DNA of 64,000 nt from an uncultured delta proteobacterium. GTDB lineage: Bacteria; Myxococcota_A; Polyangia; Polyangiales; Polyangiaceae. Shown here piece by piece: positions 3,603 to 52,528 of the stretch. The notes under the pieces were generated by a model. That model saw only the letters and a program-made list of their open reading frames with translations, made no database searches and was not told where the DNA came from. The translations under genes were made by a program, and so were the position numbers. Within the stretch, counting starts at the first letter, position 1. Each line of letters begins with the position of its first letter. Location: positions 4,224,001 to 4,288,000 of the forward strand of contig CAWAIF010000003.1 of NCBI GenBank assembly GCA_963782055.1. The letters run 5' to 3'.

Positions 3603-4181
3603 CGGGGCGGAGCTCGCTCGGTTCGCGCGCGCGTGCGTGCGGGAGGAGCTCGGCGGCGCGCCCGCCGCGTGGCCGACAGAGACCTGGTGCCGCGAGCCGG
3701 GCGCCAGCTTCGTCACGCTGCGGTGGCGCGAGCAGGTCGGCGGTCGGCTGCAGGGGTGCATCGGCTCGCTGGTCGCGCGGCGTCCGCTCGCGCACGACGT
3801 CGCGCACAACGCCCTCGCCGCGGCCTTCCGCGACCCGCGCGGCGCGCGCCTGAGCCTGCCCGCGCTCGACGAGCTTCATGTGGAGGTCTCGGTCCTCTCC
3901 CCGCTGGAGACGATCGACTTCGACGGGAGCGAGGACGGCGCGCTGGCCGCGCTGCGCCCCGGCGTGGACGGCGTCGTGCTCTCCTGGGGCGGGCGGCGCG
4001 GCACCTTCCTGCCCGTCATGTGGGAGCAGCTCCCCACCCCCCGCATCTTCCTGGACGAGCTGAAGCAGAAGGCGCGGCTCCCCGCGAGCTTCTGGGCGCC
4101 CGGCGTGGAGCTGCAGCGCTACACCGCGCAGAAGCTCGTCGACCCGTCGCCGCGCGCGCTCGCGAGCGAGAACGCGTCCGC

Positions 4182-4185
<4 letters not shown>
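3586..4185 (+). CDS. amrA: AmmeMemoRadiSam system protein A (AMMECR1 family)
   Basis: ASFVTL, LQGCIGSL, AAFRDPR, EVSVLSP, TFLPVMWEQL. GTG start preceded by GAGAGGG. Confidence 0.88.
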
Positions 4186-5264
<1,079 letters not shown>

Positions 5265-5376
5265 GCGAGCCCCGCCGCGGCATCGTGCCCCCCACGGGCC
5301 GTGACCGTTGCGGTGCGCGGTGATGGCGCTCTAGGCTGCGGGACTGCGCGCCGGTGCGCCGTGCGAGGAGGATCCC

Positions 5377-7452: not shown

Positions 7453-7501
7453 ATCGCGGACCCCAGACCATCCGGCGCAGCGCACGACCCGAGAGGAAGC
7501 C

Positions 7502-9070
<1,569 letters not shown>

Positions 9071-37145: not shown

Positions 37146-39137
37146 TCAATGCTGGGCGATGCGCTGATCGCAGGGCTTGGCGTTCTCGTCCTGACCCCGG
37201 CCGGGGATGCGAGTGGGATCCTCGTTCATCGCGCGGCCCGCCCGCTCGATCTTGTTGACGATGAGCCGGTCCAGGTTGCCGGAGGTGTAGTCGCTCTGCG
37301 TACCCCCACAGCTCGCGACCGGGTCGCCGCCACCCGTCGACTGGGGGCCAGCCCCGCCGCGCAGGACGAACATCTCGGTGCCCCCGGTGTACTGCGCGAT
37401 CTGCCGGAAGACGACCTGGCCGAGCTCGTCCATGCCGGAGGCCGCGATGGTGTAGACCTGCACGCCGGCGTGCGCGGCGGCCTGCGCGTCACGCGCGTAG
37501 CCAGGCTCGTCCTTGTAGTCGAGGTGCGGCGGCGCATCACCGATGACGAAGAGCAGACGCGCGCTCGCATCCGGACGCCACGCGAGGCCGGTGAGCGCGT
37601 CGTGGATGCCGCGGTTGACGTCCTCCGGCATGTCGCCGCCGCCGCCGGCCGAGAGCGCCGACACGATGCCGGTGAAGCGCTGCACATCGCCGGTCATGCC
37701 GAAGACGCGCGTGACGTAGGCGTCGCTGCGATCGCGGTACTCCACGAGCCCCACGTGCACGCCGGTGAGCGAGGCGGCCACGCGGCGCAGCGTCGCCTGC
37801 ACGGCCGTGATCTCCTCGCCCATCGATCCCGTCGTATCCAGCGCGAAGGCCACGTCCACGCTGGCGCCGCCGAGATCGCGCGGCTCCTTGCCGTCGAGCA
37901 GCACGACGCCGTCCGCCGTGGCGGCGGAGAACTGCGCGCTCGCCACATTGCCGCCGCATCGCGCGGTGGCAGCGAGCTTGTCGCCGCGCAGGCCCTCGGC
38001 GCGCGGAAAGAGGAGGGCGCGCCCGCTCGCCATGGTCTTGAGCGTGGTGGTCTTGCCCGACGCGTCCGCCACCGTGACCGCGCAGTTGGGAATGGGCTTC
38101 CCCTTCACGTCGCGCACCACGAGGAACTGCCGGTGCGTCACGTCGAGCGGCGTGATGCCGAGACCGCGGGAGGAGGCCAGCAGCTTCTGGAACTCGCTGT
38201 AGTTGGCGTTGTCGTCCCACTCGCCGGCGCGTACCGGACCGCTGGCGAAGTGCCCGCGAGGCCCGCCGCCTGACCGGCCGAAGCCGGTGGCGGCCGCGCC
38301 CGCGCCGTGGCCGATGGTGCCCACGGCGCCCAGCCCGATGCCCTCTCCGTGCCCGCCGCCGCCCTCGCCCGTCGCGCCGGCGACGCCCAGGCTGCCCGAC
38401 CCGAACGCGTCGGCCGCGCTGCTGCCCGACAGCAATCCCTTCGCGGCCTTCTTGGCGCCGTCTCCGTCACCGAGTGGGTCTGCCTTCACCCCGGTCGCGC
38501 CGATGGCCGAGACCAGGCCGATCACGCCCCACTCCGACGCTTCGCGATGACCCACCCCGCGCTCCGTCCTGGCGTCGGCCACTGCGTCCGCGTGGCGATG
38601 TCCCGCGGCGGAGGGGTCCACGCCTCCTTCCTCACCCTTCGCGCGAGCGCCGGTGCTCGTGGCCTCCCCGGCCACCGCCGACGTGGACCTGCGCGCGGAC
38701 GCCGCGGCGCCGTCGCCGTCGATCGCGCCGGAGCGACCACCCTCGTCCGCGCGGGAGGCGACCAGGTAGTGCCGCATCAGCTCCAGGTGGTCCCGCGCCT
38801 CCGCCGACTCGTCCCGCGGCGCCTGGCTGGCCGCGACCAGCGCACCCGTGTGCGCGGCGAGCGACGCGGTGATCAGCCCGAGCAGCGGGAGCACATCCAC
38901 GATGCGCCCCGCCCGCGCGAAGCCCTCCGCCCGGCACACCGCCAGCGTGAGGTCCCCGCTCCGTACGACCCCCTGCCCTGCCCCCTCGAATCCCGCGGGA
39001 ACGCACACCACCCCCCGCTCGTCCACCACGCGATCCCCGCCCGCGCCAGCCAGCACGTCACCCAGCCGCACCGGCGTGCGCAGGCGTCCGGAGAAGAGCA
39101 CCGAGTCGTTCCACGTCGCGACCACGTCAACCAGCAT
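37146..39137 (-). CDS. Membrane-anchored von Willebrand factor A domain protein
   Basis: DVAFALDTTGSM (MIDAS), GGGDMPED, IGDAPPH; Gly-rich GEGIGLGAVGTIGHGAG linker. Confidence 0.8.
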   Translation of the reverse strand: MLVDVVATWNDSVLFSGRLRTPVRLGDVLAGAGGDRVVDERGVVCVPAGFEGAGQGVVRSGDLTLAVCRAEGFARAGRIVDVLPLLGLITASLAAHTGALVAASQAPRDESAEARDHLELMRHYLVASRADEGGRSGAIDGDGAAASARRSTSAVAGEATSTGARAKGEEGGVDPSAAGHRHADAVADARTERGVGHREASEWGVIGLVSAIGATGVKADPLGDGDGAKKAAKGLLSGSSAADAFGSGSLGVAGATGEGGGGHGEGIGLGAVGTIGHGAGAAATGFGRSGGGPRGHFASGPVRAGEWDDNANYSEFQKLLASSRGLGITPLDVTHRQFLVVRDVKGKPIPNCAVTVADASGKTTTLKTMASGRALLFPRAEGLRGDKLAATARCGGNVASAQFSAATADGVVLLDGKEPRDLGGASVDVAFALDTTGSMGEEITAVQATLRRVAASLTGVHVGLVEYRDRSDAYVTRVFGMTGDVQRFTGIVSALSAGGGGDMPEDVNRGIHDALTGLAWRPDASARLLFVIGDAPPHLDYKDEPGYARDAQAAAHAGVQVYTIAASGMDELGQVVFRQIAQYTGGTEMFVLRGGAGPQSTGGGDPVASCGGTQSDYTSGNLDRLIVNKIERAGRAMNEDPTRIPGRGQDENAKPCDQRIAQH

Positions 39138-39178: not shown

Positions 39179-40162
39179 TCAGGACATGAAGATCCCCGCC
39201 ACCGCGTCCCGCGCGGCGGCGAAGCGCTCCTCCCAGGTGCCACGCACCACCAGCACCTGCCGCCCGCGCGCCGCGAGCTCCGCGAGGCCCCGCGCGTGGA
39301 ACTCCGCGCGGTCGGCCGGACGGTAGCGCACCGGGTCGGGGACGAAGGGCACGTCCACGTCGGGCACGATCGTCAGATCATAGCGGAGCGCGTCCGCCTC
39401 CTCGCGCACCCAGGCCGGGCACGACCCGAACAGCAGCTCCGACCACATCACGGTGGCCAGCACGTCGGTGTCGCAGACCAGCACCCGGTTCGCGAGGCGC
39501 GCCAGCGCCTCCTCCGACGCGAGCTGCCCCCGCGCGATGCGCTCCATGTCTTCCGCCTCCATAGCCCCGCCGCGTGGCTCCAGCAACGTGCGCGCGTACT
39601 CCGGCACCGCCACCGTGCCCAGCTCCTCCGCCAGCCGGCGCGCCAGCGTCGTCTTGCCCGTCGACTCCGCGCCGAACACGCACACCCGCTTGACGAAATA
39701 CGGCCGCACGCACCCCGGCAGGAACCGCCAGTGCGTCCACGGGTCCTGACGGATCGCCGTCGCGCTCACGGGCACCACCTCTCGCGCGACGTCGACCGGC
39801 ACCCACTCCGCCCCGAGCTCCGCCGCCAGCCGCTCCCCGTACGGCTCCGACGCGAACACGACGTCCGGCGGCGCGGGCAGCACCCGCAGCAGGCTCTCCC
39901 GCCAGATCTCCCAGAAGCGCGGGTGCTCGTGCGGCTCCTGCGGGTTCTCGTCGGTGAGGTGCACCACGCGCGCGTCGGGGAACAGCTCGCGCATCCACCC
40001 GAAGCGCAGCGCCCCCGGGATGGGCTCCCGCGCGAGCGTCCCCACCACCACCGTGAGGTCGTCGACGTACGCCCGCGCGAAGTCCACCAGGTGCACGTGC
40101 CCCGCGTGCGGCGGCATGAACTTGCCGAGCACCATCCCGCGACCGCGCCGGCGCCCGCTCAT
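39179..40162 (-). CDS. nadR: NadR-type NMN adenylyltransferase / ribosylnicotinamide kinase (no HTH)
   Basis: GKFMPPHAGH (HxGH), VFASEPYG, VSATAIR, FGAESTGKTTL (P-loop), VPEYAR, VCDTD. Confidence 0.88.
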   Translation of the reverse strand: MSGRRRGRGMVLGKFMPPHAGHVHLVDFARAYVDDLTVVVGTLAREPIPGALRFGWMRELFPDARVVHLTDENPQEPHEHPRFWEIWRESLLRVLPAPPDVVFASEPYGERLAAELGAEWVPVDVAREVVPVSATAIRQDPWTHWRFLPGCVRPYFVKRVCVFGAESTGKTTLARRLAEELGTVAVPEYARTLLEPRGGAMEAEDMERIARGQLASEEALARLANRVLVCDTDVLATVMWSELLFGSCPAWVREEADALRYDLTIVPDVDVPFVPDPVRYRPADRAEFHARGLAELAARGRQVLVVRGTWEERFAAARDAVAGIFMS

Positions 40163-43026
40163 GCGGCCCCCAGCGCGCGGCGCACGTAGAGCCGCAGCAG
40201 CTCCGGCGACGCCTCCGGACACACGATGCCGCTGCCGGCCAGCGCGGCGATGGCGCGCTCCGTCCCGAACGTCGCGCCCGTCGCCTGGAACAGGTCCACC
40301 GTGCGGTAGCGCTCGGGACGCGCCCCCGAGAGCGCGCGGCCCAGCGCCACGAACGCCGCGGCGTCCTCCTCGGCCTCGCCGCGCCGCAGCGCCGCCACCC
40401 GCGCGCGCCACGCCGCTTCCCCCACCGCGCGGGCGGGCGCGCCCTCCGCCGCCATCGCCGCGAGCAGCGCGTCGAGCGTCGCCCCGTGAGGGCTCGCCAC
40501 GTGCAGCGCGCACGTCCCCGCCGGCGGCGCCGCGACCACGTGCGCCACCGCGGCCGCGGCGAAGTCCACCGGCGTCACGTCGAAGCGCAGCCCCGCGCGC
40601 AGCGCCGCCGCCGGCACGCACCCCGCGCGCGCGGTGCCCCGCACGAACATCCCGAGCAGGTCTCGCGCCGGCGCGTGACCCGTGCGCGAGTCCCCGGTCA
40701 CCAGCCCGAGGCGATGCACCACGACCGGGCCCAGCCGCGCCCCCGCCGCGCGCGCGACCTCCTCCGCCCCCCACTTGCTCTGGGCGTAGCCGCCGTGCAC
40801 CGCGCGCGCCTCGCGCAGGTCGTCGTCCTCCACGTGCGCGCCGCGCGGACAATCGCTCGCCACGAACACCGAGAGCGTCGAGACGTGGTGCAGGCGCTTC
40901 GGCCGGCCCTCAGCGAGCAGCCGCGCCACCTCCGCCGTGCCGCCCACGTTCGCCGCGCGCAGGCGCTCGTACGGCCACACGAGGTGCACCACCGCGCCGG
41001 CGTGCACGATGGCGTCCACCTCGCGCGCCGCCGCCGACCACTCCGCCTCGCGCAGCCCGAGTCGCGGGCGCTCCAGGTCCCCGACCAGCACGCCCAGCCG
41101 CGCGCGCTGCTCCGCCCCCGGCGTCATGCCGTGCGCGGCCATCGCGGCGAGCACCCGGTCGCGCGCGTGCGACGCGTCGCGCCCGCGCGCCAGGCAGCGC
41201 ACCCGCGCGCCCGTCCGGTCGAGGAGCGTGGCCACCAGCCGCGCGCCGAAGAAGCCCGTCGCGCCCGTCACCAGCACCGTGCCCGGCGCGCCCGCCGTCG
41301 CCGCGCGGAACGCGCCCGTGCGAAGAGGCCCCATCGCCCGCGCCGCGTCGCGCCGCAGCTCCTGCGCGCCGCGCGCGTCGTCCGATCGCGCGCGCAGCAT
41401 CGCGCGCGCCGTGCGCCCCTCGACGATGGCGGGCGGCGAGACGATCAGACCTCGCGCCTCCGCCGCCGCGGCGAGCTCCAGCACCGCCATCGAGTCGGCG
41501 CCCAGGGCGAAGAAGTCCGCCTCCGGGTCCACCGCCGCGAGGCGCAGCACCTCGGCGATCGCCGCGCACAGCGCGACCTCCGCGGGATCCCGCGGCGTCG
41601 TGGTCGCCGGCAGCGCTTCGCCCGCCGCCGGCCGCAGGTCCACCAGACGCGGCAGGTCCACCTTCCCCGCCGGGGTGCGCGGCAGCGCCTCGCACGCCAC
41701 CCACCGCGCCGGCACCATCCACGCCGGCAGCGTCGCGCCGAGGTGCTCGCGCAGCGCCTCCGCGGGCGCCTCGCCCGCGACGAAGGCGGTGAGCACCCGC
41801 CCCTCGGGCACCACCGCGCACTCCCGCACCGCGGGGTGCTCCAGCAGCTTCGCCTCGATCTCCTCCGGCTCCACCCGCCGGCCGGCGAGCTTCACCTGCC
41901 GGTCCAGCCGCCCGAGAAACACCGGCCCCGCCGCCCCGCGCCGCACCCGGTCGCCGGTGCGGTACCAGCGCTCGCCCTCGCGCACGACGAAGCGCCCGGC
42001 GGTGAGCTCCGGGCGCAGCAGGTAGCCGCGCGCCAGACCGGGTCCGGCAATCCACAGCTCGCCCTCCTCCCCCTCCGCGACCTCCCGCAGCGCGCGGTCG
42101 ACCACCTCGAGGCGCGCGCCGCCGATCGCCTCCCCCAGCCGCGGCTCGTTCCAGGTCGTGTCGCACACGCACCCGCTGGCGCAGATGGTCGCCTCCGTGG
42201 GCCCGTAGACGTTGACCACGCGCACCCGCGCGGCGAGCCGGCGCACCGCGTCCGGCGGACACACCTCGCCCCCCACCACGATCGACCGCAGCCCCGGCGG
42301 AAGCGCGCACCGCGCAAGCAGCGCCGCCACCGCCGGCGGCAGATCGGCGTGAGTGACGCCCAGCTCCCCCATCCGCCGCGCGAGCGCCGCGGGCGCCAGC
42401 TCGCCCGCCCCCCCGTCGATCACCAGCGTGCCGCCCGCGAGCAGCACCGTCCCCACGTCGGAGATGGAGGCGTCGAAGCCGGGCGAGAGCACCCAGAGCG
42501 CCCGCGTCGAGGCGTCGACGCCGAAGAGGCGCACCTGATCGTCGAGCACCCCGAGCAGGCCCCGATGCTCCACCAGCACCCCCTTCGGCGCGCCGCTCGT
42601 TCCGGAGGTGTAGACCACGTAGGCGAGGTCGCCGTCCGCCCCCACCTCGTTGCCCGCCGCCTCGTGCGGCGCCCCGTCCGGACCCGCCGCGCCACGCATG
42701 CGCATCCACGCCGCGTCGATGACCGCGCCCGCCCGCGCGTCCTGCAGCATCCAGCGCGCCCGCGCCTCCGGCAGCGCACAGTCCACCGGCAAGAACGCGG
42801 CGCGCGCGTACCAGGCGCCGAGCATGGCCGCCACCAGGTCCGCCGAGCGCGGCAGTCGCAGCGCCACCACGTCCTCTCTCCCCGCGCCGACCGCGCGCAG
42901 GCCCACCGCCACCGCGAGCGCGCGCCGCCGCAGCTCGGCGTAGCTCACCCGCACGCCGTCCTGCTCCACGGCCGCGAGCGCGCCGCGCTCCCGCGCCACG
43001 GCCTCGAAGCGCGCGACGAAGGTCAC
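40159..43026 (-). CDS. NRPS-like adenylation-thiolation-thioester reductase (A-T-R)
   Basis: A domain: LAYVVYTSGTSGAPKGV, FDAS, YGPTE, YRTGD, PAGKVD. T domain: FFALGADS. R domain: VTGATGFFG, GYAQSKW. Confidence 0.92.
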   Translation of the reverse strand: MTFVARFEAVARERGALAAVEQDGVRVSYAELRRRALAVAVGLRAVGAGREDVVALRLPRSADLVAAMLGAWYARAAFLPVDCALPEARARWMLQDARAGAVIDAAWMRMRGAAGPDGAPHEAAGNEVGADGDLAYVVYTSGTSGAPKGVLVEHRGLLGVLDDQVRLFGVDASTRALWVLSPGFDASISDVGTVLLAGGTLVIDGGAGELAPAALARRMGELGVTHADLPPAVAALLARCALPPGLRSIVVGGEVCPPDAVRRLAARVRVVNVYGPTEATICASGCVCDTTWNEPRLGEAIGGARLEVVDRALREVAEGEEGELWIAGPGLARGYLLRPELTAGRFVVREGERWYRTGDRVRRGAAGPVFLGRLDRQVKLAGRRVEPEEIEAKLLEHPAVRECAVVPEGRVLTAFVAGEAPAEALREHLGATLPAWMVPARWVACEALPRTPAGKVDLPRLVDLRPAAGEALPATTTPRDPAEVALCAAIAEVLRLAAVDPEADFFALGADSMAVLELAAAAEARGLIVSPPAIVEGRTARAMLRARSDDARGAQELRRDAARAMGPLRTGAFRAATAGAPGTVLVTGATGFFGARLVATLLDRTGARVRCLARGRDASHARDRVLAAMAAHGMTPGAEQRARLGVLVGDLERPRLGLREAEWSAAAREVDAIVHAGAVVHLVWPYERLRAANVGGTAEVARLLAEGRPKRLHHVSTLSVFVASDCPRGAHVEDDDLREARAVHGGYAQSKWGAEEVARAAGARLGPVVVHRLGLVTGDSRTGHAPARDLLGMFVRGTARAGCVPAAALRAGLRFDVTPVDFAAAAVAHVVAAPPAGTCALHVASPHGATLDALLAAMAAEGAPARAVGEAAWRARVAALRRGEAEEDAAAFVALGRALSGARPERYRTVDLFQATGATFGTERAIAALAGSGIVCPEASPELLRLYVRRALGAA

Positions 43027-43817
43027 CGCGGCACCTCGTAGTCCTCCAGCGTGGAGCCGCGCGAGCGGTTGTCCTCGTCCGGCGCGCCCAGGCCCGCGGC
43101 GTGATCCCCCAGGTGGACCACGCGCACGTCGATCGAGAAGCGCGTCCGCCCGCTGTCGTGGGCGCGCGTGGCGTGCAGATGCGCGGCGGAGAAGAGCACC
43201 AGCTCCCCCGCGCTTGCGGCGATGGGCATCCCCTCGTCGGGCGGCGACCCGAGCAGCCGCGGGTAGGGCGCGTCCGGAGCGGGCCGCGGGTTCTGGAAGC
43301 CCACACCGGCGCGCCACGCCGCGTAGTCGAAGGACGCCGAGTCGTTGGGCACCGCGCACCCGAAGGCGCCCGTGTGGATCACGAACGTCTCCTCCGCCCG
43401 CGCGTCGAGGAGCGGCGTCCACACGTTGATCTGCGCGCGCGGGTTGGCGTACCAGGTGTCGCGGTGCGCGTGGTAGGCCGGCGCCGCGGCCGCCACGCGA
43501 TGCCCGCCGCTCGGCACGACGCGCAGGCGCGGCGTGTCCACCGCGTGCTCCGCCGGGTCGATCCCGGCGGCCACCAGCGCCGCACGCACCGCCTCGCGCA
43601 CCTGCGCGTCCGCCGCGATCTCCCCCCGCAGCGCGGTGACGCGCTCGAACAGCGCGGCAGGCGAGAGGCGCTCGTGCACCGTCGAGAGCGGCAGCGCCCC
43701 GGAGAAGGCGCGCTCCGCCCGCGCCACCAGCAGCTCCGCGAGCGCCCGGCTCTGCGCCGACGCCGCGACGCGCACCACCTCCCCGCGGTAGAGCGCTCGC
43801 CGCCGCTCGGCGCTCAC
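43023..43817 (-). CDS. Putative Fe(II)/2-oxoglutarate (PhyH-like) dioxygenase
   Basis: HRDTWY (HxD), INVWTPL, distal FSAAHLH, RFSIDVR. Confidence 0.65.
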   Translation of the reverse strand: MSAERRRALYRGEVVRVAASAQSRALAELLVARAERAFSGALPLSTVHERLSPAALFERVTALRGEIAADAQVREAVRAALVAAGIDPAEHAVDTPRLRVVPSGGHRVAAAAPAYHAHRDTWYANPRAQINVWTPLLDARAEETFVIHTGAFGCAVPNDSASFDYAAWRAGVGFQNPRPAPDAPYPRLLGSPPDEGMPIAASAGELVLFSAAHLHATRAHDSGRTRFSIDVRVVHLGDHAAGLGAPDEDNRSRGSTLEDYEVPR

Positions 43818-44578
43818 GACGGCCTCCGCGCCAGCGCGATGCACCGCTCGCTCTCCAGCGTCAGCGGCTCGCACCGCAGGCTCCCGGCGAGCTCCACCTC
43901 CCCGAACCCCGCCTCCTCCAGCAGCCGCACGATCTCGTGCGGGGCGTAGAGCCGGGTGGAGCCGCGCCGCGCGATCCGCTCGCCCGAGGGCATCTCGTAG
44001 GTCCAGGTCTGGTCCAGCGTGCCGCGCCGCAGGTCGAGCGAGGACTCGCGCACCACCCGCACCTCCCCCGCAGGCACGACGTGGCGCGAGATCATCACCG
44101 GCGCGAAGCGCGCGAGCACGCCGGGCACGTTGGGGTAGTCCAGCGCGAAGCAGCCGCCGGGGCGCAGCGAGTCGTGCGCGGCCCGCAGCATCGCCACGTT
44201 ACGCGCGTCGCTCTCGGCGTGGCCGAAGCTCGTCGCCCAGTTGAAGGCGCCGTCGCAGGGCTCGGGCGCCACGAAGCGCTCGGCGTCGCCGTGGGCGATC
44301 GCGCAGCGGACCCCCGCGTCCCCCGCCGCCGCGCGCGCCCGCCGCACGTACTCCGCCGACTGGTCCACGCCCACGACGAAGACGCCTCGCCGCGCGAGCG
44401 GCACCGCCAGCCGCCCGACGCCGCAGCCCTGATCGAGCACGCGCGAGCCCGCGCCCGCGCCGAGCACCCCCACCAGGAAGGCGACCGTCGCGTCCACCGT
44501 CTCGGCGTGGAGCGTCTCCAGGACCACGTCGGCGAACACGTCGTCGTAGAACGCCGGCCACCAGTCCCGCGCGTTCAC
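43814..44578 (-). CDS. Class I SAM-dependent methyltransferase
   Basis: RVLDQGCGVGR, VGVDQS, TSFGH, LRPGG. Confidence 0.9.
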   Translation of the reverse strand: MNARDWWPAFYDDVFADVVLETLHAETVDATVAFLVGVLGAGAGSRVLDQGCGVGRLAVPLARRGVFVVGVDQSAEYVRRARAAAGDAGVRCAIAHGDAERFVAPEPCDGAFNWATSFGHAESDARNVAMLRAAHDSLRPGGCFALDYPNVPGVLARFAPVMISRHVVPAGEVRVVRESSLDLRRGTLDQTWTYEMPSGERIARRGSTRLYAPHEIVRLLEEAGFGEVELAGSLRCEPLTLESERCIALARRPS

Positions 44579-46470
44579 GAGGCCCCCAGGCGGTAGCGCG
44601 CCTCGAGGAGGCTCGCCGAGAGCACCATCATCAGCGCGGGGTCCCACGCGTGCCGCTCGGCGGGCGAGAGCGCGTCCAGCCCCTCGAGCCGACGCACGAC
44701 GGCCGCCCTGTCGAACGCGGGCGGCAGCGAGGGTCCTCGCAGCACGTCGTCGGCCAGCGCGCGGGCGGCCGAGCCGGCGCGCCAGAGCGGGGGCGCCATG
44801 AAGGGGTGCTTGCGCCGGCGCACCACCGCCTCGGGCAGCAGCGGCGCCATCGCCTCGCGCAGCACGTGCTTCTCCACCTCCCCGGCGATCTTCACCTCGG
44901 TGGGGAGCGTCCGCACGAAGGCGAACAGCTCGTGGTCGAGCATGGGGAGGCGCCCCTCCACCGAGTGCGCCATCTCCATTCCATCCCCCAGCGTCCGGAG
45001 GATGTAGCCGGCGAGGGCGAGCTTGGTCCACGTGTACGCGGCCTGGTCGACCCGGTCCCGCCCCGCGAGCTGCGCCGGATCGAAGGACGCGACCATCTGC
45101 GCGTACGGGTCCCCCGCCGCGTGGGCGCGCAGGAACCCGGGCGCCGCCAGCGACGTCACCCGCCTGCCCAGCGCCGCCTTCGCCTCCATCCAGCTCGGCA
45201 CGAAGCCGAGGGCGGAGCGCACCGCGTCCAGCGGAAGCCCCTCGCCCACCGGCATCATGATCCCCGCCGACGCGCCGTTCGCCGCGGCGAGGCGCGCCAC
45301 GCGATCGGCCCCCGCCCCGGCGGCGAGCAGGCCGTCGCGCCGGAAGTGCGGGTAGCCAGCGAGGACCTCGTCGGCGCCCTCCCCCGTCATCACCACACGA
45401 AAGCCCGCGTCGCGCACCGCGCGGCTGAGCAGGAACTTCGCGGCGGCGTGGGCGTTGACCACCAGCCCCTCACCGTGGGCGATCGCGTCGGGCAGGGCGC
45501 GCGCCAGGTCCTGCTGCGACGCGCGCACGGTGATCAGGCGCGCCCCCAGGCGGTCCGCCGTCTGCTGCGCCAGGCCGAGCTCGTCGTAGTCGTCGTGGTC
45601 GAAGGAGACGGTGAAGCAGGTGATCGGCCCGCGCGCCCGCCGCGCGGCGAGCGCCGCCACCGCGCTGGAATCCAGGCCGCCGCTCAGCTGGAAGGCGACG
45701 GGCACGTCGGCGCGCATCCGCAGGCGCACCGCCTCGTCCAGCCGCTCGCCGAGCGCCGAGGCCACCTCCGGCGGCGCCAGCTTCTCCTCCGCGCGCGGGA
45801 CATCCAGGTCCCACCAGCGCGCGGTGCGCACGCCGGCGGAGGTGGCGGTGAGCATCGTCCCCGGCGGCACCTGCCGCACGCCCTCGAAGAGGGTGCGGTC
45901 TTCTTGCGTGTATTGTGCATGCATCGCGAAGGCGAGCGCGGCGGCGTCCCATCGCGCGGGCACGCCCATCGCGAAGAGGGCCTTGGCCTCCGAGGCGACG
46001 AGCAGCGCGCCCCCCGCCCGTGCGTACACCAGCGGCCGCACGCCGAAGCGGTCACGGGCGCAGAAGAGGCGGCGCGCGCGCGCGTCCCACAGCGCGAAGG
46101 CGAACTCCCCGCGCAGGTGCCGCAGGCAGTCCTCCCCGTGCTCCTCGTAGAGGTGCAGCAGGATCTCCGAGTCGCTCCGCGTCCGGAAGCGGTGGCCGCG
46201 GCGCTCCAGGTCTGCGCGGATGCGCGCGTCGTCGTAGAGCTCGCCGGTGACGACGGCGACGACCGCACCATCCTCGCTCGCCAGAGGCTGCGCGCCGCCG
46301 GCGGGGTCCACGATGGCGAGCCGCACGTGGCCGAGCGCCGCCTCCCCGCCCGGCGCCGTCCACACGCCACGCCCGTCCGGCCCGCGGTGGACGAGGGCCT
46401 CCAGGCCGCGCTCCACGCGCGCGGCGCACACCGGCGCCTCCGGCGAGAAGAGGGCGACGAGGCCGCACAT
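44575..46470 (-). CDS. asnB: Asparagine synthetase-like glutamine amidotransferase
   Basis: N-terminal MCG, HRGPD, RDRFGVRPL, LSGGLDSS, TGEGADE, EGRLPMLD. Confidence 0.92.
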   Translation of the reverse strand: MCGLVALFSPEAPVCAARVERGLEALVHRGPDGRGVWTAPGGEAALGHVRLAIVDPAGGAQPLASEDGAVVAVVTGELYDDARIRADLERRGHRFRTRSDSEILLHLYEEHGEDCLRHLRGEFAFALWDARARRLFCARDRFGVRPLVYARAGGALLVASEAKALFAMGVPARWDAAALAFAMHAQYTQEDRTLFEGVRQVPPGTMLTATSAGVRTARWWDLDVPRAEEKLAPPEVASALGERLDEAVRLRMRADVPVAFQLSGGLDSSAVAALAARRARGPITCFTVSFDHDDYDELGLAQQTADRLGARLITVRASQQDLARALPDAIAHGEGLVVNAHAAAKFLLSRAVRDAGFRVVMTGEGADEVLAGYPHFRRDGLLAAGAGADRVARLAAANGASAGIMMPVGEGLPLDAVRSALGFVPSWMEAKAALGRRVTSLAAPGFLRAHAAGDPYAQMVASFDPAQLAGRDRVDQAAYTWTKLALAGYILRTLGDGMEMAHSVEGRLPMLDHELFAFVRTLPTEVKIAGEVEKHVLREAMAPLLPEAVVRRRKHPFMAPPLWRAGSAARALADDVLRGPSLPPAFDRAAVVRRLEGLDALSPAERHAWDPALMMVLSASLLEARYRLGAS

Positions 46471-46471
46471 C

Positions 46472-47401
46472 TCAGTCCGCGCGCTCCGGGCCGGCGTCGA
46501 TGCGAAGGAAGACCTTGCGCGCCTCGCTCGCGCGGGCGGCCGCGAAGGCGCGGCGATGATCGCCCAGCGCGAAGGTCTCGCCGAGCAGATCGGACACGTC
46601 GACGCGACCGGTGGCCAGCCAGGCCACCGCCTCCTCGAAGGAGCCGTAGCTCACCGCGCGCAGGACGAGGTCCTTGCGCACGGCGAGGCCCACGTCCAGC
46701 GGCACCGGCGTGTGCGAGCGGCTCTTGAGCACCAGCGTGCCGCCCGGACGCAGGGCGCGGAGCATCGCGTCCATCGCCCGCGCGTCGGCCACCGACTCCA
46801 CGACCCAGTCCAGGCCCGGCGGCAGCGGACGGGCCGGGTCGCATGCGGGCACGTCCCCGAACCCGGCGGCGGCGAGCACGCGCACGATCAAGGTGGGGAT
46901 ACGGCCGGTGCCCACCACCGCGCCCCGCCCGCCGAGGTCCAGGCCGGCGCGCAGGACGCCGAGCGCCGCGGCGAGCGGCTCGGTGTACGCGGCCAGGCGG
47001 AAGGGCAGCGCCGGGGGCACCAGCAGCACCGCGCGGGCGGGCACGCGCAGGGCGCCGGCGAAGGCGCCGTCGCGGTCCACGCCGAGCAGCGCCGGGGACG
47101 CGCACCGCTCCCCGCGCGTGCACTCCACGCACGCGCCGCACGGCACCGAGGGGACGACCGTCACGCGATCGCCCGGGCGCAGGGGCGCCGCCGCCGCGCC
47201 CACCTGGGTCACGGTGCCGGCGAGCTCGTGCCCCAGCACCACCGGGTCGGCCGACGGGAGCAGGCCGTCGGCGACGTAGAGATCGGTGCGACAGATGCCG
47301 GCCACCGCGACGTCGATCACGACGTCGTCGCTCGCGACCGGCGCGAGCGGCGGCACGGTGCGCAGCGACACCTCACCTGCCTGTTTGACGAGAGCGTGCA
47401 T
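46472..47401 (-). CDS. Zinc-dependent (MDR) alcohol dehydrogenase
   Basis: GICRTD, GHE, CGACVEC..C, EPLA, VVGTGRI. Confidence 0.9.
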   Translation of the reverse strand: MHALVKQAGEVSLRTVPPLAPVASDDVVIDVAVAGICRTDLYVADGLLPSADPVVLGHELAGTVTQVGAAAAPLRPGDRVTVVPSVPCGACVECTRGERCASPALLGVDRDGAFAGALRVPARAVLLVPPALPFRLAAYTEPLAAALGVLRAGLDLGGRGAVVGTGRIPTLIVRVLAAAGFGDVPACDPARPLPPGLDWVVESVADARAMDAMLRALRPGGTLVLKSRSHTPVPLDVGLAVRKDLVLRAVSYGSFEEAVAWLATGRVDVSDLLGETFALGDHRRAFAAARASEARKVFLRIDAGPERAD

Positions 47402-47478
47402 GGGACCTTGCTCCTCCAGAAGCCCAGGATCGGGCCAGGCATTCCCGCCTGGGAAGGGACGGCTCGCCGATTCGGTAG

Positions 47479-47499
47479 ATAGAGTTATAATGACTCTTT
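47479..47499. promoter_or_regulatory. NrtR-like operator (21-bp palindrome, GT-N7-AC core)
   Basis: ATAGAGTTATAATGACTCTTT, an AT-rich island about 78 bp upstream of the operon that ends in nadR. Confidence 0.62.
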
Positions 47500-47542
47500 A
47501 GGCCCACGCAAGGCCCCCTCCGTCGGCGCGCCCGGGCGCGCG

Positions 47543-48143: not shown

Positions 48144-48989
48144 ATGATCCTGAAGAACGGCGTCCTTGGCACCGCGCTCGCCCTCCTCGTCGTGACGAGC
48201 TGCGCGAGGGGCAAGTCGGTGGCTGACACGTCCGGCTCTGACGGCGGCTCCACCACGGACGGCGGCGTGATCCCGGATGGTGCTCTGCCGTGCACCGGCT
48301 CCTGCAACGGCGACGAGGACGGCGACGGCGTGCCCGACGGGACGGACAAGTGCCCCGGGACCCCCAAGAACGCGAAGGTCAACAAGGACGGCTGCGCCGA
48401 CTCGCAGCTCAAGCCAAAGCTCGAGCCCAACTTCCCCCCGTACGGCCTCACGTGGACGCCCACCGGCAGCCTCGGCCGGGCGGGCGGACTGACGTGGACG
48501 TACACCGGCATCGACCGTGGCGACCTCTTCCACATCTACTGGATCGTCTGCGACGATCCGGCCGACCCGTGCGGCCTCTCGCTCGACGGGCCGATCGACG
48601 CGCCGGGGGAGAGCTGGGCCTACAGCGCGGGGGACTCGGATCTCCCCAACGGCAAGCTGGTCTTCACCAACACGACCAACATCCTCCTCGCCGACTCGAG
48701 CAAGGTGCCCCTCAGCGGCCGGCTGACGGTGACGATCGTCGACGCCAGCGACGCGCCCATCCCCTTCGTCGACGTGGGCACGCTCGGCGTGACGGCGCGC
48801 GACGGCCAGTACGGCGCCGAGATCACCGGCACCGGCTACAAGGTGACGGCGCTCGCCGAGGTGGAGGACAGCAACACGTCCACGTGGACGCCGTACGACG
48901 ACTACTACGACGCCGCCCCGACGGCCGACACCGGCGACGCCGGCGGGAACGTGTACGTCTCCTTCGGCGCGTCGTTCTACGACAAGTGA
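48144..48989 (+). CDS. Secreted lipoprotein with thrombospondin type-3-like repeat
   Basis: Lipobox VTSC, DEDGDGVPDGTDKCPGT..DGC. SD GGAGG. Confidence 0.7.
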   Translation: MILKNGVLGTALALLVVTSCARGKSVADTSGSDGGSTTDGGVIPDGALPCTGSCNGDEDGDGVPDGTDKCPGTPKNAKVNKDGCADSQLKPKLEPNFPPYGLTWTPTGSLGRAGGLTWTYTGIDRGDLFHIYWIVCDDPADPCGLSLDGPIDAPGESWAYSAGDSDLPNGKLVFTNTTNILLADSSKVPLSGRLTVTIVDASDAPIPFVDVGTLGVTARDGQYGAEITGTGYKVTALAEVEDSNTSTWTPYDDYYDAAPTADTGDAGGNVYVSFGASFYDK

Positions 48990-51900
48990 AGGCAGGCCTC
49001 CGCGTTTGGGCTGGAGCGCTCCTGGTGCTCGCGGCGTCGAGCTGTGGCGCCCCGCCGGGGCGTTCGTCGAGGGCGCCTCACGCGGGCGCTGCTGCGGAGG
49101 CCGGGTCGTCCTCTCCGAACTGCCCGACGGCTCCGCGCGCCGTCGTGGGGGCCGACCCCGGCGCGACCGAGATCCTCGACACCGCACACTCGGCGGGGGC
49201 CCGCGGCGCGGTCTCGCCGACCGGGACGCTCGCCACGCAGTCGTCCGACGGCACCATCCGTCTCTGGAACGTGCACTCGCGCAAGCTGCTCCGGTCCTTC
49301 CACTTCGACGTGACGAGACGGTTCGGCGGGGACCTGGCTTGGACGGCGGCCGGCGATCGCTTCGTCGCGGCCGTCGACGGGGGCCTCGTCACCTTCGGGC
49401 TCGACGGGTCGCGCGTCGCGACAGCCGGCGTCACCGTCGCGGTGCGCTCCACCGGCGACGCGGACGCCCCGTTCGTCACGGCGGGTGCAGTCCCCGGTCC
49501 CATCCGGGCCCTCGATGCCCATCTCGCGCCGCGCTTCGCGTTCGGTCCCCCCGCCGACGCCGGTCCGACGCAATCCGCGGTCTTCGAGGACGACTCGCCA
49601 CGCGGCCGCTGGGTGGCGCAGGCGCACGAGAAGGGCCTGGTGGTCTGGCCGGTCGCGGGCAAGGGCGGCCACGCGCACGTGCTCCCGCTGCCGGCGAGGG
49701 CGGTCGGCGGCGCCTTCGCGGTGCAGCCAGGCGGGGACGTCGCGGTCTACGCGTACGACGAGCTGGTCCGCCCGCACCGACGGGCGGACGGCGGCGTCGA
49801 GCCCGCCACGTGGCTCACGCACGCCTTCGTCGTGGACCTCAGGCACGATCAGCCGCCGGTCGAGCTTCCCAACCTTCGCGGCGTCGTGCCGGACGCGCTC
49901 GCGGTCTCCCCCGACGGGCACACCGCGGTCCTGGGCGCCTCGTCGACGTCGGCGTCGGATGCGGTGGGGCTCGCCGCGTGGGACCTCTCGACGCGGACCC
50001 TCCGGTGGACGCAGCGGCTGTCCGATCTCGACGCCGAGCTCGCTCGCGACCTTGCCGGGGCCAATCGCTCCGTTCAGCAGCTCGTGTTCGCGCCCGACGG
50101 GCGCACCGTCGTGGCGATGCTCGATGCCGGCACGATGCTGCAGCTCGAGACGTCGACGGGCATCTCGCTCGGGCAGTTCGGCCACCCCATCCAGGCCGCA
50201 CGCGACCTCGCATTCCTCGGGGAAGATCGGCTCATCGCGACCTCGTCCGGCGCGCTCGCCGACTGGTCACTCCCGGCGGGACGCGTGTCGCACCAGCCCC
50301 ACCAGCCCTCCGACCTTCCCCCGTTCGTGCAGGGCGACACGATGTTCACCGTCCGCTTGCCCAAGCTCTCGCCCACGACTCCGCTGTGCCCGCCGGACCA
50401 CGCGCCGCTGGCCGTCGAGCGGCACACGCTGGACACGGACGAGCCGCGCTCCAGCTCGAAGTGGCTCGCGCTCGTGAAGCCGTCGGCCGCCTGGCCCGCC
50501 ACGAAGTGGCGGACGCTGTACTGCGTACCGCTCGGGGGCGGCGATGCGCCGGGCGCGGTGCAGCCCACCTGGAAGCGCGACAACCCGATCGAGGCCTGGG
50601 ACCCCTCTCGCGGGCTCGTCATCGTTCCGTGGGGGGCGGCGAAGGATCCACTCGGCGCGACGCCCCGCGCGGTCGTGGAGATCGCCACCGGGCGCAGCGT
50701 CGTGCTCCGGGGGTCCGCGGGCAGCATGCTCGACCCCCTGCACCCGTTCTTCGTGGCGGGAGGCTCGTTGGTCGCGGCGATCGTGCGCGTGCCGACGCAG
50801 ACCATGAGCGGGCTCTACGTGTGGGACGCGAAGACCGGGGCGCTGGTGATCAAGGGGTTCCGCTTCGGCACCGGCCCCACGACGGCCGTCGTGCCGGACG
50901 AGCCCGAACTGACGGCGGTGGCGGTCTCCGACGACGGCTCCACCCTCGCCGCCGCGTACCGGCGCAAGCTCGCCATCCTGACGCCGCGTCACCCGGACCG
51001 GCGCGTCGACGTCTCGCTCGACCGTGAGGCCACCGCCCTGGCGGTCTCCCGGGACGCGAAGACCGTCTTCGTGGGCACGCTGGATGGCGACCTGCTCGTC
51101 GTTCGCGATGGCCGCGTCGTGTCCCACGTCCGCGGCACCGGCGGAGGTTACGTCACCGCGCTCGCGGCGTCCCCGGGGGCCGGCGTCGTCGCCGCCGCCA
51201 CGACCGATGGGGCGATTCGCGTGTTCGACGCCGAAGCCGCGCGGCTTCGCGGCACCCTGGCGACCTTCCAGGACGACGAGTTCGTGGCCCTCACGCCGGG
51301 AGGCGCGTACTCGGGGACACGCGAGGTCGCCGACCGCGTGGGGTGGGTGTTCGACCGCCCGCTGGAGCGCTTCGGGTTCGAGCAGTTCTCCGCCGCGTTC
51401 GACTCACCCACTCTGGTGCGCCGGCGTCTGGCAGGCGAGGCGGTGGACGTCTCGGCGACCGTGGAGAGGCCGCCGACGGTGACGCTCACCCCCCCGGCCT
51501 CCCGCATCGTCTCGACGCGGAGCGCACGCCTGCACGTGCACGTCGGCTCCGCCGCGCGCGTCGACACCGTCCGCGCCTTCGTGGAAGGGCGGTTCGCCGC
51601 GGAGAAGGCCGTCTGCGCGCCGACCGGCGACGTGGACCTCGACGTCCCGCTGCTCTCGGGACGCAACCGCGTGAGCGTCATCGCCTTCGACGCCGAGGGC
51701 TACGCGTCCAATCCCGCCGTCGTCGACCTCGAAGCGCGCGTCCCGAATGCCCCGAAGCCGGACGTGTGGGTGATCTCGGTCGGCGTGAGCCGGTACCCGA
51801 ACGTCCCCGGCGGGGACCTGCCGGCGGCGAGCGGGGATGCGCGGGCCGTCGCCCGAGCGCTCTCCGGCCTGGCAGGGTCCGGCTACGCGAAGGCGCACGT

Positions 51901-52528
51901 GACGACGCTGACCGACGACCAGGCGTCACCCGACGCGATCCGCGCCGCGCTCGCGCGGCTCTCCCGGATGTCGCGCGACGACGTCGCCTTCGTCTTCCTG
52001 GCCGGCCACGGGCTCGCGCTCGGTCCCGGCGCCATGGTGTTCGCCACGGGCCGCGTCCGGTGGGACGTGCAGAAGAGAGGCCTGACGCGCGAGTCCATCG
52101 CCGGGGCGACGCTGGACTGGAACGACATGGCGGCGGCGGTCGGCCACGCGCCCGGTCGCGTGGTGATCCTCCTCGACGCGTGCCACTCCGGAAACGTGAC
52201 GCAGTCGCTGGTGGTGCCCAACGAGAGCCTGGCCGACTCGCTCGTCCGTGAGCACCGCGCGGGCGCCATCGTCTTCTCCGCCGCGAAAGGCCGCCAGTTC
52301 AGCCTGGAGGACCCGGTGTCGAAGCGAGGCTTCTTCGCCGGCGCGTTGCTCGCCTCCCTGAGGAGCGCGACGACCGACAGGGACCACGACGGCTTCGTGG
52401 AGCTCGGCGAGCTGCTGGACGAGACGACCCGCCGCGTCGCGCTCCGGACCGCGGGCAAGCAGACGCCGTTCATCGCGCGCCGCGAGCTCTTCGGCGACTT
52501 CGTCGTCGCCCCCGTCGCCCCGCCGTGA
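48986..52528 (+). CDS. WD40 beta-propeller / caspase-like (peptidase C14) lipoprotein
   Basis: Signal ending ASSC, DGTIRLWN and DGAIRVFD WD repeats, FLAGHG and LLDACHSG catalytic dyad, DRDHDGFVELGEL. Confidence 0.85.
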   Translation: MKAGLRVWAGALLVLAASSCGAPPGRSSRAPHAGAAAEAGSSSPNCPTAPRAVVGADPGATEILDTAHSAGARGAVSPTGTLATQSSDGTIRLWNVHSRKLLRSFHFDVTRRFGGDLAWTAAGDRFVAAVDGGLVTFGLDGSRVATAGVTVAVRSTGDADAPFVTAGAVPGPIRALDAHLAPRFAFGPPADAGPTQSAVFEDDSPRGRWVAQAHEKGLVVWPVAGKGGHAHVLPLPARAVGGAFAVQPGGDVAVYAYDELVRPHRRADGGVEPATWLTHAFVVDLRHDQPPVELPNLRGVVPDALAVSPDGHTAVLGASSTSASDAVGLAAWDLSTRTLRWTQRLSDLDAELARDLAGANRSVQQLVFAPDGRTVVAMLDAGTMLQLETSTGISLGQFGHPIQAARDLAFLGEDRLIATSSGALADWSLPAGRVSHQPHQPSDLPPFVQGDTMFTVRLPKLSPTTPLCPPDHAPLAVERHTLDTDEPRSSSKWLALVKPSAAWPATKWRTLYCVPLGGGDAPGAVQPTWKRDNPIEAWDPSRGLVIVPWGAAKDPLGATPRAVVEIATGRSVVLRGSAGSMLDPLHPFFVAGGSLVAAIVRVPTQTMSGLYVWDAKTGALVIKGFRFGTGPTTAVVPDEPELTAVAVSDDGSTLAAAYRRKLAILTPRHPDRRVDVSLDREATALAVSRDAKTVFVGTLDGDLLVVRDGRVVSHVRGTGGGYVTALAASPGAGVVAAATTDGAIRVFDAEAARLRGTLATFQDDEFVALTPGGAYSGTREVADRVGWVFDRPLERFGFEQFSAAFDSPTLVRRRLAGEAVDVSATVERPPTVTLTPPASRIVSTRSARLHVHVGSAARVDTVRAFVEGRFAAEKAVCAPTGDVDLDVPLLSGRNRVSVIAFDAEGYASNPAVVDLEARVPNAPKPDVWVISVGVSRYPNVPGGDLPAASGDARAVARALSGLAGSGYAKAHVTTLTDDQASPDAIRAALARLSRMSRDDVAFVFLAGHGLALGPGAMVFATGRVRWDVQKRGLTRESIAGATLDWNDMAAAVGHAPGRVVILLDACHSGNVTQSLVVPNESLADSLVREHRAGAIVFSAAKGRQFSLEDPVSKRGFFAGALLASLRSATTDRDHDGFVELGELLDETTRRVALRTAGKQTPFIARRELFGDFVVAPVAPP

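Follow-up and report, generated by a model that had tools for sequence, protein, structure and literature searches.

A conserved six-gene cassette that couples an NRPS-like reductase to NadR, with a predicted NrtR operator, in Polyangiaceae and other bacteria

We analyzed a stretch of 64,000 nucleotides (the window) from contig CAWAIF010000003.1 of an uncultured delta proteobacterium of the family Polyangiaceae (assembly GCA_963782055.1). On its minus strand, at positions 39179-47401, six consecutive genes form one operon, which we call the cassette. The first gene (46472-47401) encodes a Zn-dependent medium-chain dehydrogenase of 309 aa (threonine/polyol dehydrogenase-like; Zn-ADH, or ADH). 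It is followed by genes for an AsnB-type glutamine-hydrolysing amidotransferase (AsnB; 631 aa, 44575-46470), a class I S-adenosylmethionine (SAM)-dependent methyltransferase (MTase; 254 aa, 43814-44578) and a PhyH-like Fe(II)/2-oxoglutarate (2OG) dioxygenase (Diox; 264 aa, 43023-43817). The last two genes encode an enzyme like a nonribosomal peptide synthetase (NRPS) with adenylation, thiolation and thioester reductase domains (A-T-R; 955 aa, 40159-43026) and a NadR protein without a helix-turn-helix (HTH) domain (327 aa, 39179-40162), which combines a nicotinamide mononucleotide (NMN) adenylyltransferase with a ribosylnicotinamide kinase (AAA_28). Read from the sequence, a single nucleotide (G) separates the ADH stop from the AsnB ATG, and the remaining junctions are GTGA, GTGA, GTGA and ATGA overlaps, in agreement with an initial annotation of this DNA that had described a six-gene operon with four 4-nt overlaps and one 1-nt gap. 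The MTase, Diox and A-T-R genes have predicted GTG starts, since these starts were picked by the overlaps and by homologue N-termini. A GGAGGAG ribosome-binding site precedes the Zn-ADH start. The G+C content of the cassette is 77%, compared with 72% in the remainder of the window (range in the window 70-79%). A 21-bp palindrome with a GT-N7-AC core, AAAGAGTcattataACTCTAT, lies 88 nt ahead of the ADH start codon (47479-47499) and is a predicted binding site of the regulator NrtR.

Families were assigned with Pfam and NCBIfam scans, which support the families that the annotation had named for the six enzymes. Zn-ADH matches Pfam ADH_N (1.7e-22), and its best solved relatives are 4ej6 and the threonine dehydrogenase (TDH) 2dq4. 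Its score of 112 bits against the NCBIfam L-threonine 3-dehydrogenase model is below the cut-off of 380, which leaves it outside that equivalog, and it is best classed only as a Zn-dependent medium-chain dehydrogenase. The AsnB homologue matches TIGR01536 (427 bits, above the cut-off of 267) as well as Pfam Asn_synthase and GATase_7. It has an N-terminal MCG nucleophile (Cys) and the PP-loop LSGGLDSS, and its best solved relative is 7ylz, a hydroxyamidotransferase. In an alignment to 1ct9, the E. coli AsnB segment 'ietydvttirast', which we take to hold residues for aspartate binding and aspartyl-AMP formation, corresponds to 'geglvvnahaa' in the cassette protein, so the segment is not conserved. 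The MTase matches the Pfam families Methyltransf_25, Methyltransf_23, Methyltransf_31 and Methyltransf_11.

Diox has the HxD...H iron triad and the 2OG-binding Arg: H118-x-D120...H215 and R226-x-S228 are invariant in 74 sequences. Its AlphaFold model (pLDDT 94) has the double-stranded beta-helix fold, and Foldseek matches this model to PhyH-like oxygenases only (probability 1.00, TM 0.4-0.5, identity up to 18%), which act on many types of substrate. The score against Pfam PhyH (PF05721) is 21.3 bits, under the gathering score of 22, and a profile of seven Diox sequences found no solved relative below E 0.5. Neither this profile nor the fold search, which led to remote PhyH-like enzymes with varied substrates, gives the substrate class. 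Diox forms a distinct PhyH-like family of its own; public sources label it merely 'hypothetical' or 'phytanoyl-CoA dioxygenase family'.

According to the same Pfam and NCBIfam models, the A-T-R enzyme is a single module without a condensation domain. It scores above the cut-offs of TIGR01733 (329 bits, cut-off 317) and TIGR01746 (268 bits, cut-off 213) and has a PP-binding domain. The carrier Ser (S512) and residues of the reductase motifs GxxGxxG and YxxxK (G591, G594, Y747 and K751) are invariant in 42 sequences. The enzyme is below every equivalog cut-off, namely those of Lys2 (261 versus 1030 bits), carboxylic acid reductases (CAR; 156 versus 1300), AusA and MxcG (myxochelin; 480 versus 2300), the last of which is its best whole-length match and is still far under its cut-off. 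The ten presumed pocket positions of the A domain read DASDVGVICK in the window and DASD[VI]GV[IV]CK in 42 of 48 homologues. Given this conservation, the amino acid should not differ between lineages. Published codes of domains that activate glutamine/glutamate, tyrosine or lysine are presumably similar.

Within the cassette, NadR is the most strongly conserved protein (50-68% identity). Its HxGH motif (GKFMPPHAGH) is preceded by 8 residues, and since the enterobacterial NadR model NF005988 aligns only from profile position 64, we regard the protein as lacking the HTH domain. The motifs of both domains are present in one chain: besides HxGH, these are SATAIR (SxTxxR), the P-loop GAESTGKTT (Walker A) and CDTD (Walker B). 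Alignments to the solved NadR proteins 8x7f (1.3e-36) and 1lw7 extend across both domains (residues 9-296). The motifs and the starting position in the profile confirm the annotation's description of an HTH-less NadR made of an HxGH adenylyltransferase and a P-loop kinase. NadR is the sole NadR-family gene in the source genome, and a search of this genome did not find the transporter PnuC. Judged by its sequence, the cassette NadR looks like an ordinary nicotinamide riboside (NR) kinase/NMN adenylyltransferase. The available part of a paper on the L. lactis NadR (PMC7221760) does not give the NR contacts of the canonical site.

The cassette is not confined to the source genome. A search with Diox found a match in 10 of 61 related genomes. 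We fetched nine loci around such matches, and the same cassette genes occur in the same order in eight of them, three of which have no MTase gene. A scan of contigs representing one genome per species, using an alignment of seven Diox sequences, found that the Diox family has at least 547 relatives; our locus analyses cover the best 80. At least four cassette genes occur in 53 of these 80 loci. The full order of the window is present in 22, a second order (ADH-AsnB-ATR-NadR-MT-Diox, where MT is the MTase) in seven and Diox alone in 11, while most of the remaining loci contain the same blocks interrupted by contig ends. According to record titles, the loci belong to Myxococcota, Planctomycetota, Verrucomicrobiota, Acidobacteriota, Actinomycetota (Nocardia), Pseudomonadota, Lentisphaera, Vulcanimicrobiota and others, and the cassette was seen in at least eight phyla. 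A quick NadR tree mixes phyla, placing Nocardia with Polyangiaceae and Propionivibrio with Prosthecobacter. Because this tree conflicts with taxonomy, it suggests that the cassette was spread horizontally.

Three blocks are stable across these loci: ADH-AsnB, MT-Diox and ATR-NadR. ADH always adjoins AsnB. NadR is directly downstream of the A-T-R gene in 51 of the 62 loci that have this gene, which agrees with the annotation's expectation that nadR is conserved at this position. Among the other 11 loci, seven could not be judged, one has a RhuM insertion and three lack NadR. Where Diox-ATR-NadR stands alone, ADH-AsnB (with or without MT) was found elsewhere in four of five genomes. By contrast, the MTase is optional. 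Besides the three loci of relatives, several of the best 80 loci lack it, and in none of the five MT-less genomes that were searched is there an orthologue elsewhere (best matches 31-36% identity). No additional partner gene, whether a transporter, a transferase or a regulator, accompanies the cassette consistently, as no flanking family occurs in more than six of the 53 loci, and neither a resistance gene nor a cluster-specific regulator is conserved in them. The cassette is therefore self-contained and conserved as a unit.

Some loci deviate from this pattern. In four Acetobacteraceae metagenome-assembled genomes (MAGs; L058, L062, L066 and L072), a divergent variant has MT-Diox on the opposite strand to ATR-NadR, with 34-41% identity to the proteins of the window. 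In a Verrucomicrobiota cassette, a RhuM-family gene (L089, 7068-8135, plus strand) lies between the A-T-R and NadR genes. Open reading frames in unusual gaps within cassettes encode this RhuM insertion, a STAS protein or proteins of no Pfam family, and are uninformative. In three loci of relatives (L019 of G001, L021 of G049 and L017 of G022), the matches to several cassette genes are split into two or three parts or interrupted by stops. The cassette may be decaying there, or the long-read or MAG assemblies may contain indel errors.

NrtR is a Nudix-type repressor that binds 21-bp palindromes with a GT-N7-AC core and leaves the DNA as ADP-ribose, a breakdown product of NAD, rises (Rodionov et al. 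2008, PMC2330246; here and below, cited from the part of the text that was available). A bare GT-N7-AC is too weak to carry meaning, and we therefore considered the extended site. The 17-nt core AGAGTcattataACTCT of the cassette palindrome is at 47481-47497, and the extended site is unique in the 7.58-Mb genome (0 matches to the reversed-pattern control). All 21 bp are identical in two genomes of the same genus, in which the cassette proteins are 43-81% identical (in the aligned pieces) and the flanks have diverged. The palindrome was not listed by an inverted-repeat search with a 6-nt seed, because its arm is shorter than the seed. The pattern G[AT]GT-N7-AC[AT]C has 15 matches in the 38 ADH-upstream windows (260 nt each) compared with 0.3 expected from its locus-wide rate (40 matches in the 1.32 Mb of the best 80 loci), an approximately 50-fold enrichment. 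Versions with one mismatch occur in further loci, and in other phyla, too, the first cassette gene is repeatedly preceded by this palindrome design. A possible promoter, read by eye, consists of TTGCGT and TATAAC separated by 16 nt, and its -10 box would fall inside the operator; a consensus promoter scan upstream of the cassette found no promoter.

The family that recurs beside the cassette is nrtR itself. A gene encoding NUDIX and NrtR_WHD domains is divergent from the cassette or directly upstream of it in four loci (L046, L051, L050 and L016). The source genome has two NrtR genes, each with both domains above the cut-offs, and one of the proteins, NrtR-A, is 64% identical to the cassette-adjacent NrtR of L046. 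Its gene is the last in an operon (L112, C3:3684000-3694000; genes at 6448-7881, 5480-6451 and 4749-5480, minus strand) that also encodes a divergent protein resembling nicotinate phosphoribosyltransferase (NAPRTase) and a 323-aa protein of no known family. The sequence AAAAAGTcttgacgACTCTTT is located roughly 50 nt upstream of this operon. We built a matrix from 18 operator sites, all from other genomes, and searched the source genome with a threshold of 20 bits. Only three sites exceeded it, namely those of the cassette (31.7 bits), contig C2 (24.8) and the nrtR-A operon (24.1), and the reversed genome had 0 matches. NrtR is present in all nine cassette carriers among the 61 relatives, compared with 29 of the 61 overall. 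Within the genus, three carriers have two NrtR copies and four non-carriers have one. This association, among kindred genomes, is suggestive only. The matrix, the enrichment and the conservation within the genus indicate that the 21-bp palindrome behaves as an NrtR operator would. The NrtR-like operator claimed in the annotation is thus backed by the enriched motif, by adjacent nrtR genes and by the site shared with the genome's own nrtR operon, and the carriers do encode nrtR, a point that the annotation had suggested checking.

The loci found in this way have further features. The NAPRTase-like protein of the nrtR-A operon scores 120 bits against TIGR01513 (cut-off 297) and has no Pfam match. 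The 323-aa protein, which has no Pfam or NCBIfam family, was found in 14 of the 61 genomes and adjoins nrtR in several relatives. The C2 site (L115, C2:391500-401500) is a tandem pair of palindromes at approximately 4954-5000, directly upstream of an operon (4999-6183, 6027-7124 and 7063-8178, plus strand) whose products are a DnaJ-like/protein-kinase-like protein, a protein of 365 aa without a family and an adenylosuccinate-synthetase-like (PurA/PurZ-like) protein. This operon may be a further unknown member of the same NrtR regulon. The second NrtR paralogue (L113, C3:55000-65000; genes at 3179-4534, 4548-5402 and 5409-6842, plus strand) is flanked by the genes of a 451-aa protein without a family and of a NAPRTase of more typical sequence, and no GT-N7-AC palindrome occurs in the 160 nt upstream.

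Several loci join the cassette to other genes of NAD metabolism. In an Akkermansiaceae MAG (L050), one string consists, in this order, of two operator sites, nrtR, an ADP-ribosylglycohydrolase gene, a NAPRTase gene, an isochorismatase-family gene (possibly a nicotinamidase) and the six cassette genes. At L075, the cassette is followed by an operator site and by genes for ADP-ribosylglycohydrolase and NAPRTase. A NadM-like gene (adenylyltransferase plus Nudix) is near the cassette in three of the four divergent Acetobacteraceae loci. The nine carriers are the only ones of the 61 relatives with NadR-family genes, and these genes always lie at the cassette.

The annotation had considered an alternative route to an NAD precursor, which might stand in for an absent de novo pathway. 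This idea did not survive, since the source genome has nadA and nadC, a NadD-like gene, two matches to NadE and two genes of NAPRTase type, and NadA was found in 55 of the 61 relatives, including all nine carriers. We therefore rejected a replacement of missing de novo synthesis as the role of the cassette.

A clearer pattern emerges when cassette and PnuC are compared among NadR-bearing genomes. We searched 401 genomes of the phylum, which are related to one another and many of which are incomplete MAGs, so that absence here means 'not found'. NadR was detected in 41, Diox in 23 and PnuC above its cut-off in 30. Among the 18 genomes with both NadR and Diox, PnuC was found in four and not found in 14. 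Among the 23 genomes with NadR and without Diox, PnuC was found in 21 and not found in two. Stated differently, 25 of the 41 NadR genomes have PnuC, usually directly beside NadR in those pairs whose coordinates we compared, and 14 of the 16 others carry the cassette Diox. In the four genomes that have all three, PnuC adjoins NadR, and Diox is on another contig. We also fetched the six non-cassette NadR genes that are closest to the one in the window (54-62% identical); five have PnuC directly beside them, with L124-L126 as examples. In the quick, preliminary tree, non-cassette NadR proteins, mostly PnuC-linked, nest inside the radiation of cassette NadR proteins (48-row clade, SH-aLRT 95). On the basis of these distributions, the cassette appears to take PnuC's place as the partner of NadR.

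Taken together, these observations make it very probable that the cassette is a conserved, NrtR-controlled and NAD-linked unit. We also propose, tentatively and at somewhat less than even confidence, that it supplies NadR's substrate or an NAD precursor. The complementarity of PnuC and the cassette among NadR-bearing genomes favors such a supplier over an antimetabolite. A more specific version of this proposal, which we consider rather unlikely, is that the cassette is a third bacterial way to a pyridine nucleotide, in which an NRPS-like line builds a nicotinamide-type ring or its riboside from a single amino acid and passes it to NadR.

The mechanism that we envisage begins with NrtR, which would bind the 21-bp palindrome over the promoter and repress the operon until ADP-ribose rises, so that the operon would be on when NAD is being consumed. 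The five enzymes would then occupy the place of PnuC as the supplier for NadR. This part of the model follows from the finding that NadR elsewhere in the phylum adjoins PnuC, while cassette genomes in which PnuC was not found have the five enzymes instead. The input would be one alpha-amino acid, the same in every lineage. AsnB would amidate a carboxylate, Diox would hydroxylate, Zn-ADH would oxidize and, in some lineages only, the MTase would methylate. The A-T-R enzyme would reduce the activated carboxyl to a reactive amino aldehyde. The aldehyde (or alcohol) released by A-T-R reductases can cyclize, and in this case cyclization would give a carboxamide-bearing N-heterocycle of the nicotinamide type, or a direct substrate of NadR. 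The annotation had likewise suggested that these enzymes could build a pyridine or piperideine carboxamide. NadR would trap this product, or a riboside made from it, by phosphorylation and would then adenylylate it to NAD or a close relative. Where ribosylation is needed, phosphoribosyltransferases that are host-encoded or co-regulated would help. In this model, the binding of NrtR, the reaction order, the starting amino acid, the way the ring closes and the final product are all inferred. We also considered that the methyl carbon might enter the ring, with glutamate and one carbon giving the C6 skeleton of nicotinate, and rejected this because the MTase is optional, being missing from many cassettes with no orthologue elsewhere in the five genomes searched.

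A number of observations weigh against the supply of NadR's substrate or against its NAD-linked control. Since the carriers retain the usual de novo pathway, they have no obvious need of the cassette for NAD. The reaction chemistry is predicted from enzyme families, and we found no convincing way to get from a proteinogenic amino acid to nicotinamide or its riboside using the five enzymes. No ribosyltransferase or phosphoribosyltransferase is part of the conserved cassette. In three loci (L044, L063 and L071), there is room after the A-T-R gene and yet no NadR. An exact operator match is found in 13 of the 38 ADH-first loci and is thus not universal, and none was seen upstream of split cassette modules. 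The NAPRTase-like gene of the nrtR-A operon is present, among the 61 relatives, only in the source genome (G000), G001, G006 and the non-carrier G031. The kinship and incompleteness of the genomes in the phylum sample temper the PnuC pattern. NadR matches TIGR01526 over its full length with 292 bits, below the cut-off of 341; the high-scoring non-cassette NadR proteins of the phylum, several of them encoded beside pnuC, also fall below it (258-302 bits), and the cut-off therefore seems tuned to other lineages. Finally, NrtR-family regulators also govern genes outside NAD metabolism, such as those for pentose utilization (PMC2330246).

The strongest competing explanation is an ordinary NRPS-like metabolite cluster. 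Its product would be derived from an amino aldehyde (a pyrazine, pyrazinone or cyclic imine) and unrelated to pyridine nucleotides, NadR would keep NAD(P)H available and NrtR would merely gate expression on NAD status. We consider this unlikely. An A-T-R enzyme with tailoring AsnB, MTase and Fe/2OG enzymes is typical of small natural-product clusters, and the best whole-length match of the A-T-R enzyme, although far under the cut-off, is to MxcG. The patchy distribution (10 of 61 relatives with a Diox match), the horizontal transfer suggested by the conflict between tree and taxonomy and the fact that carriers need no cassette for NAD also fit such a cluster. However, the 53 loci have no conserved transporter, resistance gene or cluster-specific regulator. 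Moreover, this explanation does not account for NadR being the best conserved protein, for its translational coupling to the A-T-R gene in 51 of 62 loci or for the PnuC-or-cassette pattern. It also leaves unexplained the pncA/pncB-type, ADP-ribosylglycohydrolase and NadM-like genes that join the cassette.

We regard as improbable a second explanation, which was also the annotation's second option, that the product is a look-alike of nicotinamide or NAD. Such a compound could be an antimetabolite, with NadR as its activating enzyme, or could spare NAD by inhibiting NAD-consuming enzymes, with NadR as a compensating supply. A carboxamide, which AsnB would make, is the recognition element of nicotinamide mimics. 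Control by NrtR would turn the operon on during NAD cleavage, given the effector reported for this regulator (PMC2330246). On the other hand, there is no conserved exporter or immunity gene, and NadR shows no sign of altered specificity. A self-poisoning dinucleotide under the repressor of salvage genes is also hard to square with a cassette that shares one operon with NAPRTase and isochorismatase-family genes.

The remaining two explanations are both very unlikely. In the first, NadR acts directly on the A-T-R product. A four-electron reduction would yield an amino alcohol, which would be phosphorylated and then linked to ADP, comparable to the activation of CDP-choline or ADP-heptose. Bifunctional kinase/nucleotidyltransferases of the HxGH class do activate alcohols in other pathways, and the A-T-R and NadR genes are adjacent and overlapping in 51 of 62 loci. 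However, the cassette NadR keeps the motifs of both domains and is 54-62% identical to non-cassette NadR proteins, mostly encoded beside pnuC, that nest in the cassette radiation, and no transferase for an ADP-activated donor is conserved nearby. The other is a salvage shortcut in which AsnB amidates nicotinate riboside or nicotinate mononucleotide and NadR finishes NAD, bypassing NadD and NadE, with the other enzymes being unrelated or accessory; it draws on the acyl-adenylate and ammonia chemistry that the AsnB synthetase domain shares with NAD synthetase, on the precedent of the Francisella NMN synthetase (a NadE-type enzyme performing such an amidation), on the NAPRTase genes joined to or co-regulated with the cassette and on the AsnB segment that differs from the presumed aspartate site of E. 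coli AsnB, but AsnB is always paired with the dehydrogenase rather than with NadR, the equally conserved A-T-R, Diox and ADH would be left without a role, and the source genome has NadE and a NadD-like gene.

The genes that flank the cassette are unrelated to it and, elsewhere, are not conserved with it. An OsmC gene lies upstream, and its stop codon is 43 nt before the operator. Between them, 2 nt past the OsmC stop, is a perfect 16-bp palindrome of G and C, GCGCGCCCGGGCGCGC (47526-47541), possibly a T-less terminator hairpin dividing OsmC from the cassette. Downstream, a gene for a 663-aa vWA-domain protein (37146-39137, minus strand) starts 41 nt past the NadR stop, with no terminator-like site between, and could be co-transcribed with the cassette in this genus. 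It follows the cassette within the genus only and is not a cassette member in other lineages. Divergent from the cassette, a gene at 48290-52528 (plus strand) encodes a 1412-aa WD40/beta-propeller protein with a C-terminal caspase (Peptidase_C14) domain; the next gene (52606-54375, plus strand) encodes AceK, the isocitrate dehydrogenase kinase/phosphatase.

The cassette's NadR end has a close parallel in the pnuC-nadR operon for NR salvage (salvage III), which has an HTH-less bifunctional NadR and the same type of regulator. That operon is NrtR-regulated in some streptococci (PMC2330246), and the phage NARP3 has a PnuC and NadR-like pair (PMC13464706, available in part). In the cassette, by contrast, the partner of NadR is a line of five enzymes that modify an amino acid, not PnuC. 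Known NrtR targets include nadR-pnuC, pncAB and pncB-nrtR-pncA, the last in Blastopirellula, and also nadABC, nadDE and prs-nadV (PMC2330246). The cassette shares with these regulons the 21-bp GT-N7-AC palindrome and, in some genomes, an adjacent nrtR, and the same type of site is present at the NAPRTase-like/nrtR operon of the source genome. However, the binding of NrtR to the cassette is predicted, and the five upstream enzymes are in no known NAD pathway; the available text of PMC2330246 does not mention an NrtR regulon with an NRPS-like gene.

Other likenesses concern the chemistry. The A-T-R enzyme shares its domain order, reductase motifs and expected release of an aldehyde or alcohol with Lys2, MxcG, the terminal module of AusA and carboxylic acid reductases, but it is far below the cut-offs for these enzymes, has a conserved pocket code of its own and is coupled to NadR. 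The quinolinate route (NadB/NadA/NadC) and the PdxA/PdxJ logic of vitamin B6 synthesis resemble the cassette only in concept, in that an amino acid derivative, oxidized next to its amine, and a carbonyl partner give a pyridine ring. There is no sequence relation, ring formation by the cassette is predicted, and the carriers already own NadA (the source genome both NadA and NadC). A search of a limited library for NadR with thioester reductase or asparagine synthetase, and for NRPS-like or NrtR-controlled NAD pathways, found nothing on this gene set. Each part of the cassette comes from a known family, its control follows the pattern of an established regulon type, and its NadR end corresponds to the familiar salvage III step. 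The novelty lies in the complete gene set and in the way it seems to trade places with PnuC, which would amount to an NrtR-controlled NAD operon of unprecedented content.

NAD synthesis is regarded as among the most completely mapped areas of bacterial metabolism. Nevertheless, a six-gene set without an assigned pathway appears to be wired into the NAD regulon in at least eight phyla, and it encodes the final two steps of NAD formation itself. The cassette is directly testable, since it is compact and self-contained and also occurs in cultured strains, which record titles name as Acanthopleuribacter pedis KCTC 12899, Stieleria magnilauensis and Archangium lipolyticum. If its product mimics nicotinamide, the cassette would represent a new class of natural products directed at NAD. 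Should it instead supply an NAD precursor, it would be a new entry to a textbook pathway and a new role of NRPS-like reductases in primary metabolism, with a bearing on predictions of auxotrophy. As a new route to pyridine nucleotides, if it proves to be one, it would provide an emergency supply of NAD under the control of the ADP-ribose sensor NrtR, independent of both quinolinate and an external vitamin.

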